A DNA stretch of 52,997 nucleotides. Source: Vampirovibrio sp. Lineage in GTDB: Bacteria; Cyanobacteriota; Vampirovibrionia; Vampirovibrionales; Vampirovibrionaceae. The notes under the pieces were generated by a model. That model had not been told where the DNA came from, searched no databases, and saw nothing but the letters and a program-made list of their open reading frames with translations. Positions 8,624 to 18,123 of this stretch are shown here, piece after piece (position 1 is the first letter of the stretch; every line of letters starts with the position of its first letter). The stretch covers positions 1-52,997 of the forward strand of contig JAJQJM010000003.1 of the NCBI GenBank assembly GCA_021323475.1, written 5' to 3'. The position numbers and the translations under genes were made by a program.

Positions 8624-8986
8624 ATGAGCCAACAACCATTTCAATTTGCCGACCGGGAGTCCCAGGCCAACGCCTTGGGGACATATCGGCATGATGTGGC
8701 CTATACGGCGGCCCTGAAATCCGAACAGGCGCTGGCTTTGGGTAGCTATCGGCACGATGTGGCTTATACCGCGGCCCTGAAGTCAGTTCAAGCTCATGCC
8801 CTGGGCAATTACCGGCATGATGTGGCGTACACCGCCGCCCTGAAATCCGCCCAGGCCATGTCCCACCAAGGGGGCACTAGCTTCAAGGGACAGTTAACCG
8901 AAGATTCAACCATCACTGGTGTTGAGCAATGCTTAGCACCAGTGATTTTTTTGGCGGCTCCGGCTGAGAAAGGCAAGGCCGCCTGA
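8624..8986 (+). CDS. Small protein with three 21-aa tandem repeats (QAxALGxYRHDVAYTAALKSx)
   Basis: Repeats differ mostly at synonymous third positions, which supports coding in this frame; stop overlaps the next start (TGATG). Confidence 0.8.
   Translation: MSQQPFQFADRESQANALGTYRHDVAYTAALKSEQALALGSYRHDVAYTAALKSVQAHALGNYRHDVAYTAALKSAQAMSHQGGTSFKGQLTEDSTITGVEQCLAPVIFLAAPAEKGKAA
8663..8857 (+). repeat. 3x 63-bp coding tandem repeat
   Basis: Units 8663-8725, 8726-8788, 8789-8851 plus a partial fourth (QA). Confidence 0.95.
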
Positions 8987-10713
8987 TGCTGGGAAGAGTG
9001 GATGGGTTCCTGTTCAACCCGACGGTGAATAAGACGCTGGCCGCCCTGGATGACAGCAAGTCCATGTTCTCGGTGGCCTCGCGGGATTTCATCGACAGCA
9101 GCGGCCGGACTTACATGGAATACAAGCGGGACAAACACGGCGGCCGCGAGCGGTTGCTGGAAGAGTTCCTGACGTTTGGCATCTGGGGTTTCGGGGTGCG
9201 GGCCATGAAGCAGGCCTACGACGCTTCCGTTATGAATATGCCCAAACTCGGCATTAAGCTGCCGGATTTGGATATCGATCTGCTGCCCAAAGCCACCAAA
9301 GCTGGGGATGATAGCCTGCAGAAGCTGAATATTGGCCTGGTTGAGAAATTTGCAGACAAGTTCAAGGATGCGGGTCAGTATAACGACTTGCTGACGGTGA
9401 TGAAATCGCATGGGTTGCAAAGCGCGTACCGCAAATCCAGCATTCTCAAGTTTATCGTGGCCAGCGGTGTACCCGCATTGGCCATCGCCATAGGGGTGCC
9501 GACCCTGAACCAGTGGCTTACCCGGCAATCCCTGAACAAGGAGAAGGCCGCCAAAACTCGGCAGCAACCCGCTTCCTCCCAGTTCGGCAACGTCAATAGC
9601 GCCAAACCGCCACTGGCAAATGGGCCGCAACAGCCGATGCAGGCTGGTGCCCAGGCGGCCAACCATTTTGCCCAGGTCACCAATTTTAACGGGTATCCCT
9701 CCTCGGCGGCACCGACCGGGCGGCAACCCTTCCGGATGAACATGCCCAATGTCGCGTCACCGTTTCAACAGCCGGGCCAACATCCTGTTCAGAAACCGGC
9801 TCAGCAGACCGCAGCAGGCAAAAACGGGCAGGTGCAGTTTGGCGGCATGGCCGATGTGGCTTCCGCCATCCTGCAAAACGAGCGTTTGAATACGCTGCTG
9901 ATTGACGGCACCATCAGTGGCGGACGGGTGCTGAAAGCCAGAAACCCGATGGAGCGCTTTGAAATCTTTTTCCGCGAGGCGGCGATTATTGCCTTCCTGT
10001 ACTGGATTCAACGGCCGTTGCAGGATGCCATCGGCAAGCAGATGGGCAAGGCTTGGAAAATCCCGGCGGATATGGAATTCAAGACCATTCAGTATCTGCG
10101 GAAACAGGAACATTACGCTAAAACCCCGTCCCTGTTCCATCAGGAATACAAACAGGGCCTGACCCACATTGCCGAAGCGATGGGCAAAAAGCTGGTGCCG
10201 GGCAAAAATGGCGCGTCCGCTAAAGACGTGCTGAGCGAGATTCTGAAGAGTTCCGATAATAAGGAAAAAGCCCTGCTGGAATCCGTTTACGATTACTTCC
10301 TGAATCACCGCGATAGTGCCAAGAGTAAAAACATGATTTTTGAAACCGCGATTGATTCCGGCCTGATTCCCACCATTTCCCGCGAGAAGCAAAGCATCTT
10401 CTCGGAAATGAACCCCATCAAGAATCAGGATTTAACCAAGAATAAATTCCTGGATCTGACCAAAAAGATTGATACCAAGGGCATTTTCTCCCTGATGGAA
10501 AGCCTGGAATCGTTGAGTGAGAAAACCATCAAGCAGCCCGCCCACCTGGAAGAAATGCTGAAAAAGACAATGCGCTTACGCTCGGGTGCCTGGTTCGCTT
10601 CCAATGCGGTGTGCTTCACCTTCTTGTCCGTGGTGATCCCCGTGTTGCAGCATTACATCACCTACAAGAGAACCGGCAAGAATTACTTCCCAGGTGTCCA
10701 GCAGGAAGCCTGA
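8986..10713 (+). CDS. Hypothetical membrane protein with two homologous halves joined by a Q/P/N-rich linker
   Basis: Each half has a D..SGR/GGR..E.F motif, a hydrophobic segment and a final hydrophobic helix ending P.L.Q/H..T; the linker ends in QVQFGG. Confidence 0.8.
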   Translation: MLGRVDGFLFNPTVNKTLAALDDSKSMFSVASRDFIDSSGRTYMEYKRDKHGGRERLLEEFLTFGIWGFGVRAMKQAYDASVMNMPKLGIKLPDLDIDLLPKATKAGDDSLQKLNIGLVEKFADKFKDAGQYNDLLTVMKSHGLQSAYRKSSILKFIVASGVPALAIAIGVPTLNQWLTRQSLNKEKAAKTRQQPASSQFGNVNSAKPPLANGPQQPMQAGAQAANHFAQVTNFNGYPSSAAPTGRQPFRMNMPNVASPFQQPGQHPVQKPAQQTAAGKNGQVQFGGMADVASAILQNERLNTLLIDGTISGGRVLKARNPMERFEIFFREAAIIAFLYWIQRPLQDAIGKQMGKAWKIPADMEFKTIQYLRKQEHYAKTPSLFHQEYKQGLTHIAEAMGKKLVPGKNGASAKDVLSEILKSSDNKEKALLESVYDYFLNHRDSAKSKNMIFETAIDSGLIPTISREKQSIFSEMNPIKNQDLTKNKFLDLTKKIDTKGIFSLMESLESLSEKTIKQPAHLEEMLKKTMRLRSGAWFASNAVCFTFLSVVIPVLQHYITYKRTGKNYFPGVQQEA

Positions 10714-10833: not shown

Positions 10834-13800
10834 CTAGTTGACCAGAAAACCGACCGGCAAGTCCTTCAGAATGTCGGAAACATCAATTTCCGCCAGATGT
10901 TTGCCTTTGGCTCTGATGTCCTCTTTGCTCAGGACGTTTCGGAACGCATAATTCCGCATACTTTCCGGCAGCGTGATCGCCGTGTCTTTCCATAGCCGTT
11001 TCCCGCAGGGCATCCCATGTTTACGCATGCCCATGCTGTAGAGTAACCGTGGCGCAACTGTTATGGCTACTTTGTCCTCCCATTGCCGGGCAAAGGCTAT
11101 CACATGCTCAGACCCGGAACCGGTGACATCCAATGGCACATAGCTCCCATACTGGAACAATTCCCGGTTTCGCCCACGATAGTGCAGCACCGAGGCGATC
11201 AGGTATTGCTTGATGCGCCCGTCCGTCAGGTTATCGGTCAATTCCAGCAGAAACTTAGTCAAATGCTTGGGATCATCGGAGTAAACGGCTTCCTGAATCG
11301 GCCCCATATGAGCTTGCCTCAGCGAATAATCCACAGGCTGGCGGTTATCCGGGTCCACCATGCTGAAATCCCATAGCTCCGTCCCCTGGTACAGGTCGGG
11401 TACGCCGGGACAGGTCAGTTTGAGCAGGGTTTGAGACAAGGAATTGAACAAACCAAACCGGGCCACAACGCGCTGGAAGGGCACAAAATCATCCAGAAAC
11501 AAGGATGAAGGCCGTAACAGAACCCCACGGATGAACTGGGCCAAAGCATCCTCGTACTCTGTATCCGGGTTAATCCAACTGGTATTGGTTTTCGCCTCTT
11601 TGGCCGCTTTCATCATGTATTGAATCATCCGCTCAGCCAGGGACTCCAAGCCCTCCTTTCCCGGTGACGTCAAGGGCCAAACCCCGATCAGGGCCTGGTA
11701 AAACAGGTATTCCTCATTGACGGAGGGGGTCTGTTCCCCGTCCTGCAAATGTTTGCGCCAGTGGCGATGGAAGCGCCGCCATTGGCTCACATGGCGATGC
11801 CATTCCTCCGGCATCTCGGAAAGGACGCTGATGCGGGCGCGCACGTCTTCCGAGCGTTTGGTGTCATGCGTGGACGTATCCAGCAGCGTATTCGGCGTCC
11901 GTTTGCTCCGGTCCAGGTTGTGATGGTGGAAAGTGGACATGGAAATCCCGAACTGGTGGGGCTCGCCTCCCACTTCGTTCAGGGACACCAAGCGGTTATA
12001 CCGGTAGAAAGAGGTATCTTCCAGACCCTTTGCCATCACCGGGCCGGAATACTGCTGGAATTTCATGGCAAACCGGGTCACCGCCTCCAGGAAGGGTTCC
12101 TCGTCCTCCGTGTCGCCATTGGCTAGGGGGCGGGTGACGGATGACTTGCTTGCCTCACCCGCCGTGGTGCCTGCTGCAACCGGGTTATTGGCCCCGGCGG
12201 CTATCCCGTCTCCCAGGAATTCCGGCGCGAATTCCAGCAGCAACACGGAATGAATAAAGTCGAAAATGCTGGTATCAATGGCTTTGCTGCGCCGCTTGGC
12301 CAGCCGGACGGCCCATTCAATGTATTCGCGGTCTTTTTTGCTGATCTGATCCGGCGTAATGTAGGTGCGGTATACCGGGAAGCAGGCAACCACCTCCATC
12401 AACGCGTCGCGAAGGTTGTGCAGCGTGTAATCGCGGGTGCTCCAGTTCCGCTTGGAAAGCCGGTTCAATTGCTGGCTCAAAACCCCCAACTCGCTGTTCA
12501 GGGTGGTTTTCATAATCAGCTTTTTGCAACGGTACACCAGATCATCAAAGTCCACCTTCTCACCCAGCAAGCGCTCGTAAATGCGGGTGAATTCCTTCTC
12601 CTCATCCTGCTTTACGAAGATGCCGTTGACCAGGTTGGTGAATTCGTAACCCGTAGTGCCATGCACGGTCCATTCCTGCGGCAGCCGCTCAAACGGGGCC
12701 AAAATCTTCTCAATCAGCACGTAAAGCGGCAAATCCTCGGAGCTGAGCTGCCAGTCGGTGCGAATAGGCTTACCCAGTCGCTTGGCGGCCTCCTCTTGCA
12801 AGCGGTGGAAGTAGGCGGCAGGGTCGTACAATCCGTCCGGGTGGTCAATGCGCAGGCCGGTCACCAGGCCCTGTTCCACCAGTTCCATAATCAGCTCGTG
12901 CGTGTCGTTGAAAACCCGCTGGTCTTCCACTCGCACCGCCACCAGGTCGTTGATGTCGAAGAACCGGCGGTAATTAATCTCGTCGCTGGCTACCCGCCAG
13001 TTGGACAGCCGGTAAGCCTGCTGTTCCAGCAGGCGGTGCAAGCGGGTCTGATTGGTGGGATCGTCTTTCTGCGGGATGAAATCCTGCACGTTTTCATGGA
13101 TAAACGTGACGATATCCGGCGTTTGCCCGCATAGGATGACCAGCCGGTTCAGGCTGATGACCCGCTCTCGGGCGCGTTCTTCCTTCTTATCGAAATCATA
13201 ATTGGTGACCACCGGCAAATGCTCGAATGAGGACATAATGCTGCGGTACTCCAGAAAGGCCGGGGTGGTTTTGCCCAGGCGGGCTTCCAGGGTTTCCAAC
13301 CGGTGGCCCAGAATAATGGGGTAAGACACCGGATTGATGGGAATGGCGTTTTCGTAATAATCCAGCCAGAAACGCCCGTTTTCCGGTGCGAATCGAACTT
13401 TAAGCTCGCTATTGGTCAGGATTTTACCGTAAGCATCCCCCAAAATGGGTAGCAGAATCTTGTTTTGCAGGTCATCCGTCAGCGGATGCCAGTCAATATC
13501 AAAATAATCGGCGTACATGGAGGAGCGGCCATTCTCCAGCACGTCCATCCACCAGGGGTTGTCCTTGCCTGCGCCCATATGGTTCGGCACAATGTCCAGC
13601 ACCAGGCCCATGCCATGTTCCCGCAGAATATGGGATAGGTGCTCAAACTCCTCCTGGGTGCCAATTTCCTGGTTGAGTTGCTTGTGATCCGTAATGTCGT
13701 ACCCGTGAGGACTGCCCTCGCGCGCCTTAAGTAGCGGAGAGGCATAACAATGGCTGACCCCCAGTCGGCTGAGGTACGGTACCAGCTCAATAGCGTCCCG

Positions 13801-13854
13801 AAAGGTGAAGTTTCGGTTGAACTGGAAGCGATAGGTGGCGTGGGGAATGGTTAA
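10834..13854 (-). CDS. treY: Malto-oligosyltrehalose synthase (frame extends upstream of the ORF-track ATG; reached by -1 frameshift from malQ)
   Basis: IPHATYRFQF, YASPLL, SPHGYD, DIVPNHM, INYRRFFDI, GLRIDHPDGL, EKIL, TSTHDTKRSED, PGVPDLYQG, VDPDNR. Confidence 0.93.
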   Translation of the reverse strand, partial: LTIPHATYRFQFNRNFTFRDAIELVPYLSRLGVSHCYASPLLKAREGSPHGYDITDHKQLNQEIGTQEEFEHLSHILREHGMGLVLDIVPNHMGAGKDNPWWMDVLENGRSSMYADYFDIDWHPLTDDLQNKILLPILGDAYGKILTNSELKVRFAPENGRFWLDYYENAIPINPVSYPIILGHRLETLEARLGKTTPAFLEYRSIMSSFEHLPVVTNYDFDKKEERARERVISLNRLVILCGQTPDIVTFIHENVQDFIPQKDDPTNQTRLHRLLEQQAYRLSNWRVASDEINYRRFFDINDLVAVRVEDQRVFNDTHELIMELVEQGLVTGLRIDHPDGLYDPAAYFHRLQEEAAKRLGKPIRTDWQLSSEDLPLYVLIEKILAPFERLPQEWTVHGTTGYEFTNLVNGIFVKQDEEKEFTRIYERLLGEKVDFDDLVYRCKKLIMKTTLNSELGVLSQQLNRLSKRNWSTRDYTLHNLRDALMEVVACFPVYRTYITPDQISKKDREYIEWAVRLAKRRSKAIDTSIFDFIHSVLLLEFAPEFLGDGIAAGANNPVAAGTTAGEASKSSVTRPLANGDTEDEEPFLEAVTRFAMKFQQYSGPVMAKGLEDTSFYRYNRLVSLNEVGGEPHQFGISMSTFHHHNLDRSKRTPNTLLDTSTHDTKRSEDVRARISVLSEMPEEWHRHVSQWRRFHRHWRKHLQDGEQTPSVNEEYLFYQALIGVWPLTSPGKEGLESLAERMIQYMMKAAKEAKTNTSWINPDTEYEDALAQFIRGVLLRPSSLFLDDFVPFQRVVARFGLFNSLSQTLLKLTCPGVPDLYQGTELWDFSMVDPDNRQPVDYSLRQAHMGPIQEAVYSDDPKHLTKFLLELTDNLTDGRIKQYLIASVLHYRGRNRELFQYGSYVPLDVTGSGSEHVIAFARQWEDKVAITVAPRLLYSMGMRKHGMPCGKRLWKDTAITLPESMRNYAFRNVLSKEDIRAKGKHLAEIDVSDILKDLPVGFLVN

Positions 13855-16148
13855 GGAAGAGCTTCGTTCGCTTTTTTTTTCCCCGAATCTTCGGAGGGTG
13901 TCTCAATCGGGTTGATAGTGGGGCGTTCCGCCGAGATTGCCGAACAAATCTCCTTGACCCGGCTATCCGTAAACAGGGTTTCCAGCGGCAGGGTAACTTT
14001 ACGCTTCCAGCAGGCATAAACCGGATCCGTGGTGCCGGGCAGGTTGATCTGGTCAATCTGCTGCAACATGTCCTCGAATTGCACCATAAACACTTTAGCA
14101 TTGGTTTGTGCCACCAACCGGTGAATGGCCGTGGACAGTTCCGGCGAGATACTCGGCGTAGACAGTGGCCCGGCCGTCACATCCGGGGGCAGCAGGCCCC
14201 GTTCTTCCAGCAATGCCAGAATAGCCATCCGTTCCATCACCCGATCCTTGATCTGGCGTTCCCGCATTTCCTTGTTCGGGTACAAGTCCAGTTCGGTGCG
14301 AACCGCAATATCCTGCCCTTGCCAGAAGCCGCTTAGGGTAGGCAAGTCATGCGTGCTGACCGCAACGGCGGCGGTGTCCAGGTATTCTTCGGGCGATTTA
14401 TAGCGCTCGCCTTCTTTTTCAAAGTAGAACACCTTGTAGGAATAGATGCCCCAACGGTTCATGCGATCCCGTACCAGATCCGGCACGGTGCCCATGTCCT
14501 CGCCGATGACCATACATTGGTTGCGCTGGCTTTCCAGGGCCAGAATGCCGAACAGTTCATCCAGGGAGTAATGGATATACGCCCCCTGAGACGGCGGCAG
14601 GCCCGGCGGAATCCAGAACAGGCGCATCAGGCCCATCACATGGTCAATCCGCAGCGCGCCGGCGTGTTTCATATTCTGCCGCAGGATTTCAATATAAGAC
14701 TCATAGGATTCTTCCCGCATTTTCTCGGGAATCAGCGGTGGCAGGCCCCAGTCCTGGCCTTTCTGGTTGTACTCGTCCGGGGGAGCGCCCACCGCGCTGG
14801 ATTTAGCAAATAAATGCTGGTTGGCCCATACGTCCGCGCCGCCGCGATCCACGCCAACGGCCATATCCATATACAGCCCCACGCCCAGATTACTGTTCAG
14901 GCAACGCAGTCCGGCATCCCGAAGCTGGATATCCACCAGCCATTGCAGATACTGGTAGAAGCCGACCCGTTCCCGGTTGGTTTCCAAAAACTCCCGAACC
15001 GCCGGGCCTTCCGGATCCTGGTAGGCTTCCGGCCAAGCAGGCCAGCCCCACACAGAGGCGTCTTCCTTGTGGAAACGCTCCTGCAAGGCATGAAACAGAG
15101 CGAACCGCTCCAGCAGATGGCCGTGTTCGCTGATGTAACGCCGGAAATCCTGGGCTCGCTCCGTATTCTGCGATAAGTGCTTATGGCAGAAGTTCTGGTA
15201 CAGCAGTTCCAGCACTTCCAGCTTGCGTTGCCCAACTTCGGCATAGGGTACCATCGTTTCCTTGCGCAGACGCTCCAGCGCGGTCTGGTAGGCAGGGCTG
15301 AACACCAGCTGCTTGGCCTCGGCGGACTCCAGGAAATCTGCCACAGCCTCGACATCCAGGTACAGCACGTTAAAATACATGCGGCTGGACGGGGAATACG
15401 GACTGGAGTGGGCCGGGTTGTGCGGGAACAGCGCATGCAGCGGGTTCAGGCCCACCATGGCCGCGCCTTGCTCGGCGCACCAGTCCACAATGCGGTTCAG
15501 GTCGCTGAAATCGCCGATGCCCCAGTTGCGATGGCTCTGCACCGCATACAGTTGCACGGCGGGTCCCCAGACTTTACCGTTTTTGCCGCCATGTTCTTCG
15601 CTATCCAGCACATTGGGCATATAACAGCGAGTCGGTGTGATGACTAACAGCATGTTCACGGATTCGCCGGATTCCGCGTCCCGTACCTGGAACTGGTGAT
15701 ACCCTTGCGGCAAACCGCCTTCCAGGGCTAAGCGGTACTGCCCGATTTTCTCGTGATGTGCCGCCAGCTCGACGGTTCCCACCTGATGAAGCTCGCCAAT
15801 CCTGAACTGACCCGTTTTACTATGGCCGTCCTCGGTTTGAAGCTGCCACTGGAAGGTTTTTTCGTGGGCGCTTTCGGGCAGATGCACCGGAACATCGATA
15901 TTTGGTGCGGTTTCCGGCACTACCATCACGGGCTCCAGCCAGCGGGCCACGGTTTGGTGTTGCAGTTTATCAAACGCCAGATCGATATCGGACTGGGAGT
16001 GGATGTTGACTTCCATCGCGGAAAGCAGGGCCTTGTACATCTCATCGGTCACATGGTGCGCGTTACCCCAGATGTCGCGCCATTCCGGTTGAATACCGTA
16101 GGCCTGGGCCAGGTTTTGGAGGTTGCTTTCCTGCGTAATGGTTTCCAT
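13851..16148 (-). CDS. malQ: 4-alpha-glucanotransferase (amylomaltase, GH77)
   Basis: WGIGDF, GLNPLH, SPYSPSSR, DMAVG, GAPPD, GQDWG, LRIDHVMGL, IGEDMG, STHDLPT, INLPGT. Confidence 0.95.
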   Translation of the reverse strand: METITQESNLQNLAQAYGIQPEWRDIWGNAHHVTDEMYKALLSAMEVNIHSQSDIDLAFDKLQHQTVARWLEPVMVVPETAPNIDVPVHLPESAHEKTFQWQLQTEDGHSKTGQFRIGELHQVGTVELAAHHEKIGQYRLALEGGLPQGYHQFQVRDAESGESVNMLLVITPTRCYMPNVLDSEEHGGKNGKVWGPAVQLYAVQSHRNWGIGDFSDLNRIVDWCAEQGAAMVGLNPLHALFPHNPAHSSPYSPSSRMYFNVLYLDVEAVADFLESAEAKQLVFSPAYQTALERLRKETMVPYAEVGQRKLEVLELLYQNFCHKHLSQNTERAQDFRRYISEHGHLLERFALFHALQERFHKEDASVWGWPAWPEAYQDPEGPAVREFLETNRERVGFYQYLQWLVDIQLRDAGLRCLNSNLGVGLYMDMAVGVDRGGADVWANQHLFAKSSAVGAPPDEYNQKGQDWGLPPLIPEKMREESYESYIEILRQNMKHAGALRIDHVMGLMRLFWIPPGLPPSQGAYIHYSLDELFGILALESQRNQCMVIGEDMGTVPDLVRDRMNRWGIYSYKVFYFEKEGERYKSPEEYLDTAAVAVSTHDLPTLSGFWQGQDIAVRTELDLYPNKEMRERQIKDRVMERMAILALLEERGLLPPDVTAGPLSTPSISPELSTAIHRLVAQTNAKVFMVQFEDMLQQIDQINLPGTTDPVYACWKRKVTLPLETLFTDSRVKEICSAISAERPTINPIETPSEDSGKKKANEALP
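13872..13884 (-). promoter_or_regulatory. Slippery homopolymer GGGG-A9 (candidate -1 frameshift or transcriptional slippage site, or a sequencing indel)
   Basis: T9 at 13872-13880 on +; one extra A fuses MalQ in frame to the start-less TreY N-terminus. Confidence 0.6.
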
Positions 16149-16230: not shown

Positions 16231-18123
16231 TCAGCCAATCTTCCAAAGAACCGCCCAGGCCGGGATCGTGCCTGACTCAATCTCTTGCGCGACCGTATCT
16301 CCACTTTGATAAATGACATTCATACGGCCGGAACGAATATTATCGGAAAGCGGGGACGGCAAAGTCAATGGCGTGGCGCTTGGGTTGGCAACCAAAACCA
16401 GGGTTTTTCCATTCGCAAGTGGCCACTCGACTATCATGCCGGATTTTTCCAAAATTTTACATTCGGGTTTACGTGGCGCCTCATGCGTTTGAGCTGCCAG
16501 ATGCGGAATGATCGCCTGCTTGCGAATGCTCAGCAACTCGCGGGTTAAGGCCAGCCACTCGGCATGCACTGGCTGGTGCAGCACGGTCCAGTCCAACCGG
16601 GATTGTTCAAAGGTGGACACGGCCGCCGGATCCGGGATGCGTTCGCGGGTTTCCGGATTGCTGAATTCCGGGAACCGGGCAAACTCTTTACGGCGGCCTT
16701 CCGTCACCAACCTGGATAATTCCGGGTTAAAGTCGCAGAAGAACAGGAAAGGCCGATCGCTTTGCCACTCTTCGCCCATAAACAGCATCGGAATGGAAGG
16801 CGCCAATAAGAGAACTTCAGTCAGCGATTTCATCGCTTCCGGCGGAGCCAGTTGATGCAAACGCTCCCCAAAGGCGCGATTTCCAACCTGATCATGATTT
16901 TGCAGGAAGTTCACGAATGCGGTCAGCGGGAGTTGATCGGTTTTTTCCCCGCGAGGATGCCGCCGGTACTGGGATTGTTCACCCTGGTAAGCGAACCCTT
17001 CGCTCAGGCAGCGGGCCAAATGGGCTACGGCCGGTTGATGGGAAGCGGCCTCATCGTAATCGGAGTAATAGCCCGATGCGTCCCCGGTGGCAATTACATG
17101 CGCCGCATGATGGAAATCATCATTCCACTGGGCGTCAAAATGCGTTTGGCGTTTTCCCAGTAAAAAACGAGACGCGTTATCGTCATTCTCCAGCACCAGG
17201 TGCACATGCCGATCCGCTGGAATCTGGCTGCGTACGGTTTCCGCCAGCTCATTCAGGAAGTGGGTCGGGGATTGATCGTAAATGGCATGCACCGCGTCAA
17301 AACGCAGACCGTCGATATGGTATTCCGTCAGCCAGTACAGCGCGTTTTGAATGAAGAATTCCCGCACCGGGCGGGGGCCTTCAAAGTTGATGGCCGCTCC
17401 CCACGGGGTGTGGTAATGCTCGGTAAAAAACGATTTTGCATAGGTATGCAAATAATTCCCGTCCGGGCCGAAGTGGTTGTATACCACATCCAGAAATACC
17501 ATCAGCCCTTTCTGGTGTGCGGTCTGGATTAAATCTTTCAGATCATCGGGCGTTCCGTAACTGCTATCGGGAGCATAGGGCAATACGCCGTCATATCCCC
17601 AATTCCGCTGGCCCGGAAAATCCGACAACGGCATCAGTTCAATGGCGGTAACGCCCAAATCCACCAGGTAATCCAGTTTGTTTTTTACGCCCTGATATGT
17701 GCCTTCCGGGGTGAATGTGCCGACATGCAATTCATACAGGCTCGTTTCTTCCCACGGGCGGCCTTTCCAATGGGTATCCTCCCACTCAAACCGGGTGGGA
17801 TCCACAACCTGGCTGGGTCCATGCACATCCTGCGGCTGATACCGTGATGCGGGATCCGGCACGTTCAAATCCCCGTTAATGCGAAAGCTGTATAAATCTC
17901 CATGCCGCGCCTGAGCGGAAAAACAGGTATGCCAGCCGTCCGCTTGGGCGTCCAACACCAGCGGCTGATCGTTTAACATCAGCTCGACGGATTGCGCGGT
18001 GGGTGCCCACAGGCGAAACGTGACTCCCGCTTTATCCGGCGCGATATGAGTGCCGTATGGCATTGCATGAATGCGACTTGTTTCCGTTGGCCCGGCATTG
18101 CCAGCCGCGTATACCCCAGCCAT
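16231..18123 (-). CDS. treZ: Malto-oligosyltrehalose trehalohydrolase
   Basis: FRLWAP, PDPASRYQP, YELHVGTFT, WGYDGV, DVVYNHFGPDGNY, DGLRFDAVHAI, QWNDDFHH, QNHDQVGNR, LFMGEEW. Confidence 0.95.
   Translation of the reverse strand: MAGVYAAGNAGPTETSRIHAMPYGTHIAPDKAGVTFRLWAPTAQSVELMLNDQPLVLDAQADGWHTCFSAQARHGDLYSFRINGDLNVPDPASRYQPQDVHGPSQVVDPTRFEWEDTHWKGRPWEETSLYELHVGTFTPEGTYQGVKNKLDYLVDLGVTAIELMPLSDFPGQRNWGYDGVLPYAPDSSYGTPDDLKDLIQTAHQKGLMVFLDVVYNHFGPDGNYLHTYAKSFFTEHYHTPWGAAINFEGPRPVREFFIQNALYWLTEYHIDGLRFDAVHAIYDQSPTHFLNELAETVRSQIPADRHVHLVLENDDNASRFLLGKRQTHFDAQWNDDFHHAAHVIATGDASGYYSDYDEAASHQPAVAHLARCLSEGFAYQGEQSQYRRHPRGEKTDQLPLTAFVNFLQNHDQVGNRAFGERLHQLAPPEAMKSLTEVLLLAPSIPMLFMGEEWQSDRPFLFFCDFNPELSRLVTEGRRKEFARFPEFSNPETRERIPDPAAVSTFEQSRLDWTVLHQPVHAEWLALTRELLSIRKQAIIPHLAAQTHEAPRKPECKILEKSGMIVEWPLANGKTLVLVANPSATPLTLPSPLSDNIRSGRMNVIYQSGDTVAQEIESGTIPAWAVLWKIG

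Follow-up and report, generated by a model that had tools for sequence, protein, structure and literature searches.

How can a cell make a complete malto-oligosyltrehalose synthase (TreY) from a reading frame that offers no start codon ahead of the conserved N-terminus of the enzyme? The question is raised by the malQ-treY junction in a 52,997-nucleotide (nt) stretch of DNA from Vampirovibrio sp. (GenBank assembly GCA_021323475.1, contig JAJQJM010000003.1, positions 1 to 52,997), which is called the window here and supplies all coordinates; malQ, treY, treZ, and the junction lie on its minus strand. By standard decoding, malQ (13851..16148) encodes a 4-alpha-glucanotransferase of 765 amino acids (aa). 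Its 3' end reads GGG AAA AAA AAA GCG AAC GAA GCT CTT CCT TAA, with the TAA stop at 13853-13851, and is translated as ...DSGKKKANEALP*. The run of nine adenines (A9; 13872..13880), which the MalQ frame reads as AAA AAA AAA (KKK), is where we propose that slippage or frameshifting occurs; it directly follows a GGGG (13881..13884) that relatives do not conserve. The TreY coding part consists of 1005 codons from TIPHATYRFQFN (10834..13851; stop at 10836-10834). On the upstream side its frame is closed by a TGA (13903..13905), past which it translates as DTLRRFGEKKSERSSSLTIPHATYRFQFN... and over a longer stretch as ...GEKKSERSSSLTIPHATYRFQFN..., remaining free of stops for 1022 codons down to 10834. 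The first canonical start in this frame, an ATG at 13609..13611, lies 80 codons into the conserved enzyme and is where automatic callers begin TreY.

Passing from the MalQ frame into the TreY frame takes a -1 shift, the equivalent of one extra A. The TreY-frame linker codons SERSSSL (13852..13872), which overlap the MalQ tail ANEALP*, would then connect MalQ K759 to TreY, giving a predicted fusion of 759 + 7 + 1005 = 1771 residues. A first-pass annotation of the window had described the same layout. Its placement of 80 codons of the TreY N-terminus ahead of the ATG at 13611 was borne out by the list of open reading frames (ORFs) and their translations, and sequence and translations agree that the frame is shut by the TGA and holds no ATG, GTG, or TTG before 13611. 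The MalQ reading of GGG AAA AAA AAA GCG with its stop at 13853-13851 can be seen in the sequence, and the 1771-aa product proposed to arise from one extra A or a -1 slip matches our residue count.

We conclude that an ancestral malQ-treY fusion gene probably became a recoded gene in the Vampirovibrio clade, with RNA polymerase slippage at the A run as the most likely mechanism and the ribosome perhaps contributing. The recoding interpretation, already put forward in the first-pass annotation, is supported on comparative grounds by the invariant run, the selected start-less TreY, and the in-frame fusions of distant relatives.

The MalQ ORF is a GH77 amylomaltase with a MalQ N-terminal domain (PF02446, 397.8 bits; PF21226, 53.9 bits) and scored 494 bits against TIGR00217 (cut-off, 205.65). 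The TreY frame scored 990.7 bits against TIGR02401 (cut-off, 498.65). NF011077 (PRK14507.1) is a curated NCBIfam model of fused MalQ-TreY proteins with 1693 positions and a 2148-bit cut-off; its positions 4-742 are matched by MalQ (869.7 bits) and 730-1693 by the TreY frame (1238.7 bits), so the halves line up collinearly with a protein already known as a single chain. With the DNA divided between two frames, each half falls below the score that marks one polypeptide (>2148 bits). In-frame MalQ-TreY proteins share both domains and their order with the window, and close family relatives encode them as one ORF, whereas the halves in the window occupy separate frames and their fusion is not directly encoded in the DNA.

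We searched NF011077 through 41 whole genomes, the window's own included, and the TreY N-terminus in 25 genomes of the family, and we read the junctions of the 14 family genomes that have TreY. Adjacent malQ and treY in different frames, with an A run between them, were found in nine genomes, which represent the whole genus (G000-G007) and a sister genus (G009). The frames also differ in G022, where T7 replaces the A run; three genomes (G010, G018, and G019) have a single in-frame ORF, and one (G013) has a stand-alone treY with an ATG. A member of another family of the same order (G031) carries one in-frame ORF. The in-frame fusions of G010, G018, and G031 are 1726-1731 aa long, and that of G019 is partial. 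Comparison with relatives, which had been suggested as a check on the window, therefore shows the split-frame arrangement to be shared by nine separately assembled species.

Six of the A-run genomes have A9 and three have A10, and without exception the run begins exactly 44 nt ahead of the TYR codon. The MalQ stop follows 0-18 nt past the run in eight of the nine, and the frame offset is -1 in eight, with G004 requiring +1. When the nine sequences were anchored on the run, pairwise identity was 44%, 34%, and 44% in the upstream 15-nt blocks, 100% in the run, and 55-65% in the 35-nt downstream linker; their TreY proteins are 66-85% identical to that of the window. As expected of a programmed transcriptional slippage site, the run is conserved while its flanks diverge, a run of about nine or more A/T stands in the coding strand in all nine clade genomes, and a zero-frame stop comes soon past the run, together with a long, conserved, start-less ORF in the other frame. 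Seven of the eight genus members have an SS[A/S] motif in the TreY-frame linker, and G005 has NSA. The best named match, Vampirovibrio chlorellavorus NCIMB 11383 (L035), has the junction GCGC-A9-CAGTAG; this species is a predatory, non-photosynthetic member of the cyanobacterial lineage, and the window comes from a soil relative of it. As a separate observation, the junction of G022 (L016/L024, another genus of the family) combines a -1 offset with a long overlap, inside which lies an in-phase CGT TTT TTT GTC (T_TTT_TTT).

Judged by its substitution pattern, purifying selection acts on the start-less N-terminus of TreY, which is therefore probably translated: over the first 80 TreY codons, the nine A-run genomes show 571, 431, and 1454 differences at codon positions 1, 2, and 3, respectively. 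The ∼1000-codon TreY frames are open in all A-run genomes, and IPxATYRFQFN and many later residues are invariant, in-frame fusions included. No ATG, GTG, or TTG lies between the upstream stop and IPxATYRFQFN in seven of the nine. The G002 N-terminus is altered to LINGTYRF, and its relative P0255 has a start codon there.

The composition of the genome sets the run apart. A/T runs in the 3.34-Mb assembly never exceed nine bases, a length reached by 16 of them, and only at one of these 16, the malQ-treY A9, do two long open frames (2340 and 3066 nt) meet. The 910 long open frames of the assembly encode 56 KKK tripeptides; with an AAA share of 0.56, ∼10 of these should be spelled AAAAAAAAA, yet just 1 is, and the genome avoids A9 runs inside genes. 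A KKK in a hypervariable C-terminal tail would not remain AAAAAAAAA by chance.

Wider sampling extended to genomes of other phyla, metagenomes, and a collection of 5.8-billion protein clusters that includes assemblies of public runs. At the 80 other-phyla genome loci among the matches listed, MalQ is in the TreY frame in 8 (2 of them weak matches) and in another frame only in V. chlorellavorus L035, and 71 are without an upstream malQ by our criteria; L035 is the only clade member among the genome-contig matches listed. The 80 metagenome loci among the matches listed comprise 19 in-frame fusions, 1 ordinary two-gene arrangement (L145), 55 without malQ, and 5 too short upstream. No A-run junction occurs among the metagenome matches listed, which are relatives of 50-62% identity. 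Long proteins related to the window MalQ numbered 2216 among 8000 scored candidates, and in-frame fusions occur among the 120 listed. The closest fused proteins among the matches listed, P0002 and P0003, are 74% identical to the window MalQ and have a linker without a K run, and none of the fused proteins among the matches listed exceeds that identity. The linker of these two proteins (…EHAARLAMMIPSATYRF), which are fused in frame, resembles that of G022. P0007, a relative of G009, is fused in frame via ...SDQKKTANPVGLKIPRATY.

Stand-alone MalQ and TreY proteins in protein databases were compared as well. Among MalQ clusters of at least 68% identity, 16 of 18 end in KK(K) and a short tail, which has 0-8 residues in 14 of these 16 and 23 and 17 residues in P0123 and P0139, respectively, a +1 configuration. 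Stand-alone TreY calls of at least 59% identity are N-terminally truncated in 24 of 28 cases and lack IPxATYRFQFN; the truncated calls (P0242-P0273 set) begin at varied internal Met, Val, or Leu codons, and the 99% identical P0242 (925 aa) starts MGLVLDIVPNH. Genome-based surveys would therefore score the trehalose pathway of such genomes as damaged or odd. Of the remaining four calls, two contain the motif yet have L in place of an initial M, one (P0255) starts MIHGTYRF, and one (P0267) is called from the GTG of G009. Some stand-alone MalQ proteins (P0134, P0135, P0141, and P0146; 63-72% identical) have …ERPKRG/ERPRRG… tails and no K run. The TreY calls P0254 and P0256 start LRRNAPN…IPRATYRF. 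Together, these proteins may represent another junction type.

To place these states in order, we computed a rapid maximum-likelihood tree (LG+G4) from the first 560 residues of 25 TreY sequences; several of its internal branches, like its root, are weak. One clade, with a Shimodaira-Hasegawa-like approximate likelihood ratio test (SH-aLRT) support of 99, holds G022 (T7), G019 (in frame), and all nine A-run genomes, and G009 is its first branch; the remaining in-frame fusions fall outside it. The simplest order suggested by these sequences starts from an ancestral fusion whose halves came to lie in different frames at an A run when the clade arose. Later on, G019 and P0007 would have regained a single frame, G022 would have acquired another slippery run, and the offset would have changed in G004 and P0139.

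Under the recoding proposed here, templated decoding would end a few codons past the A9 or A10 run and yield free MalQ (765 aa in the window). A share of expression events would shift frame at the run to give the 1771-aa MalQ-TreY, the sole route to complete TreY. In the window, RNA polymerase slippage would insert one non-templated A, and a ribosomal slip on A_AAA_AAA may add to the fusion. The predicted outcome is a fixed low ratio of the trehalose-forming fusion to free amylomaltase, the main product, and this ratio would replace the 1:1 stoichiometry of the ancestral fusion. Anatomy, conservation, and selection on the start-less TreY are direct observations; from them we infer slippage, its level, and its frequency. 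More tentatively, it is possible that the whole clade un-fused a constitutive bifunctional enzyme by slippage and that selection keeps both the run and the out-of-frame state, tying trehalose synthesis to polymerase infidelity. The in-frame state appears not to be tolerated and the -1 and +1 states to be tolerated, because none of the nine A-run genomes and 16 K-tailed MalQ clusters is in frame. Were slippage to vary with nucleotide pools, temperature, or growth rate, the run would sense such conditions without any protein and raise TreY output under stresses such as desiccation.

Several observations weigh against recoding by polymerase slippage. The nine A-run genomes are kin and so amount to fewer than nine independent observations, and most are metagenome-assembled genomes (MAGs). 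The +1 offset of G004 could reflect a MAG error or a decaying gene. The run contains a classical -1 ribosomal heptamer, A_AAA_AAA, that is in phase in eight of the nine genomes and out of phase in G004. Independent or coupled initiation of TreY may occur in some members: G009 has a GTG right after the run that overlaps the MalQ TGA (gene call P0267), P0255 starts MIHGTYRF, and in G002 a TTG lies 111 nt ahead of the motif. Ordinary initiation is one of the rival explanations. If malQ and treY were two ordinary genes, with TreY starting at ATT, ATC, or CTG or by re-initiation, the A run would be merely an unstructured, A-rich leader. The G009 overlap is typical of coupling, and the window has an ATT four codons before TYR. 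Nevertheless, seven of the nine genomes lack a canonical start before the motif, and an ATT start, which the first-pass annotation had named as a refuting outcome, appears unlikely: the candidate codon is ATC in G001, G003, and G007 (three of nine), and CTG then ATC stand in G002. We set the window ATT aside as a start; it codes for the Ile of IPxATYR, which is kept in the in-frame fusions too. The distance from the MalQ stop to the candidate codon varies, and the linker codons between run and motif are conserved in the TreY frame. A genuinely unfused relative, L145, looks quite different, with the MalQ TGA followed by GGGAGGG and then ATG ACC ATT CCA CGC GCC ACC TAT. We therefore consider two ordinary genes very unlikely. 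A homopolymer miscount or a recent inactivating frameshift (pseudogene) is scarcely credible, even though a one-base homopolymer offset is the commonest assembly error and the assembly is a 216-contig MAG. We aligned contigs from four public runs in four studies, one of them perhaps the source sample, to window positions 13400-14400; in each run a contig spans the A9 with no gaps or indels (contigs hide minority length variants), and three of the four are strain variants with 11-13 substitutions per kb relative to the window. Other A9/T9 runs within long ORFs of the assembly (C182, C115, and C59) are in frame, and nine species agree, on the basis of which we reject the sequencing error that the first-pass annotation had considered a serious alternative. 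Decay is further opposed by the sharing of the arrangement among nine species with 66-85% identical TreY, by intact ∼1000-codon frames, and by change biased to third positions.

DNA-level phase variation, in which replication would alter the run length so that an in-frame subpopulation is ON and the split majority OFF, would draw on the fact that A9/A10 tracts are slippery for DNA polymerase too, according to the accessible text of PMC3711429. It would also suit the changes of offset during evolution (+1 in G004 and P0139) and the in-frame relatives in the G009 lineage, such as P0007. All nine species assemblies and three more strain-level contig sets are nevertheless out of frame (with the same caveat that contigs hide minority variants), no fused protein among the matches listed is more than 74% identical to the window MalQ, and free drift of tract length would put about one third of lineages in frame; phase variation is thus a long shot. 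Purely ribosomal programmed -1 frameshifting, with P- and A-site Lys-tRNAs slipping on A_AAA_AAA of a faithful mRNA to give the same fusion, is rather unlikely in our judgment. It is favored by the in-phase heptamer, by the naming of A_AAA_AAA and A_AAA_AAG as frameshift heptamers in the accessible text of Antonov et al. (2013; PMC3711429), and by G022, nested in the clade, whose in-phase T_TTT_TTT has only seven bases, short for polymerase slippage. However, no conserved stimulatory element was found in the nine A-run genomes: the alignment fold has four weak pairs (-0.11 kcal/mol), single-sequence fold z-scores are mostly within ±1.5 (exceptions, G002 and G009), and no Shine-Dalgarno (SD)-like element is conserved upstream of the run. 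On sequence evidence we regard RNA polymerase slippage as more likely than ribosomal frameshifting because every run has at least nine bases although the heptamer needs seven, because the site has no conserved RNA structure or SD-like element, and because G004 and P0139 are +1, a state that a one-A deletion by the polymerase could rescue and a -1 ribosomal shift could not. A further reason is that nine is the length at which selection against slippage shows and the length used by Thermus dnaX. According to the accessible text of Baranov et al. (2005; PMC1088944), many bacteria show evident selection against RNA polymerase slippage once A or T runs reach nine, and Thermus dnaX (A9) and Shigella mxiE exploit such runs. 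G002 (L008) alone has a hairpin 15 nt past its A9 (-25.9 kcal/mol; z, -4.7), in which …AVELI… codons pair with FQFN codons.

To our knowledge, few cellular, non-mobile bacterial genes depend on homopolymer slippage. Those named in the accessible text of Baranov et al. (2005; PMC1088944) are dnaX and mxiE. As described in the accessible sources, Shigella flexneri mxiE resembles malQ-treY in having two frames, an early stop in the upstream frame, and a longer functional product that needs one non-templated base at a 9-base homopolymer (T9). In mxiE a single regulator is split, whereas malQ-treY would join two complete enzymes of different glycoside hydrolase families, the upstream one probably functional alone; malQ-treY also has in-frame fused orthologues. 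Thermus thermophilus dnaX, again as described in the accessible sources, shares an A9 in a cellular, non-mobile gene with a nearby stop in other frames and two products (tau and gamma) at a set ratio. There the templated product is long and the slipped product short, and malQ-treY would be the reverse. In Escherichia coli dnaX, the -1 frameshift employs an SD-like element ahead of the heptamer (A_AAA_AAG) and a stem-loop behind it. This heptamer is likewise an in-phase Lys-Lys slippery site, but no conserved equivalent of the two accessory elements was found at malQ-treY. The same comparative logic underlies the GeneTack candidate clusters, including magnesium chelatase, which in the accessible text of Antonov et al. 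(2013; PMC3711429) combine adjacent ORFs, fused homologues, and a conserved A-rich heptamer; the words "glucanotransferase" and "trehalose" are absent from the main text and two supplementary files of that paper (a third supplement is unsearchable). A 2024 review of alpha-glucan metabolism (PMC11046441) names TreS-Mak, GlgB-MalQ, and GlgA-GlgB fusions in its accessible text, which does not mention a MalQ-TreY fusion. We found no report of a recoded malQ-treY in the accessible literature on slippage or frameshifting with these enzymes or in Vampirovibrio (judged by titles and abstracts for Vampirovibrio). Recoding of malQ-treY would thus be a new case of a known kind, for which the comparative evidence is strong. 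If true, it would be a metabolic case that joins two complete enzymes, and it would come from the non-photosynthetic sister group of the cyanobacteria; versions with and without a common frame occur naturally and can be compared. V. chlorellavorus NCIMB 11383 is a named strain with the same A9, and the prediction is therefore directly testable.

Upstream of malQ, treZ (malto-oligosyltrehalose trehalohydrolase; 16231..18123, minus strand) scored 717.8 bits against TIGR02402 (cut-off, 538.8) and is the first gene of a treZ-malQ-treY cluster, which is the TreY/TreZ route from alpha-glucan to trehalose. Just 3' of treY lie three mutually overlapping ORFs of 200 to 580 aa (8986-10713 on the plus strand, 9757-10392 and 8809-9726 on the minus strand); none of these ORFs at 8809-10713 has an NCBIfam match at E ≤ 1e-5. 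Elsewhere in the genome of the window (G000), a second A9 (contig C182:6388-6396; L195) falls in frame within an ORF of 994 aa, at residue 742 (…SYQKKRVDF…), where a linker separates Wzz/GNVR chain-length-determinant domains from a WecG glycosyltransferase domain (residues 803-969). Slippage at this A9 would yield a truncated, Wzz-only product, as in a Thermus dnaX-type arrangement. The longest homopolymers in the genome are a G11 and a C11 (C10:29-39 and C201:4409-4419), one of them at a contig end, and these 11-base runs may be phase-variable tracts or assembly edges.

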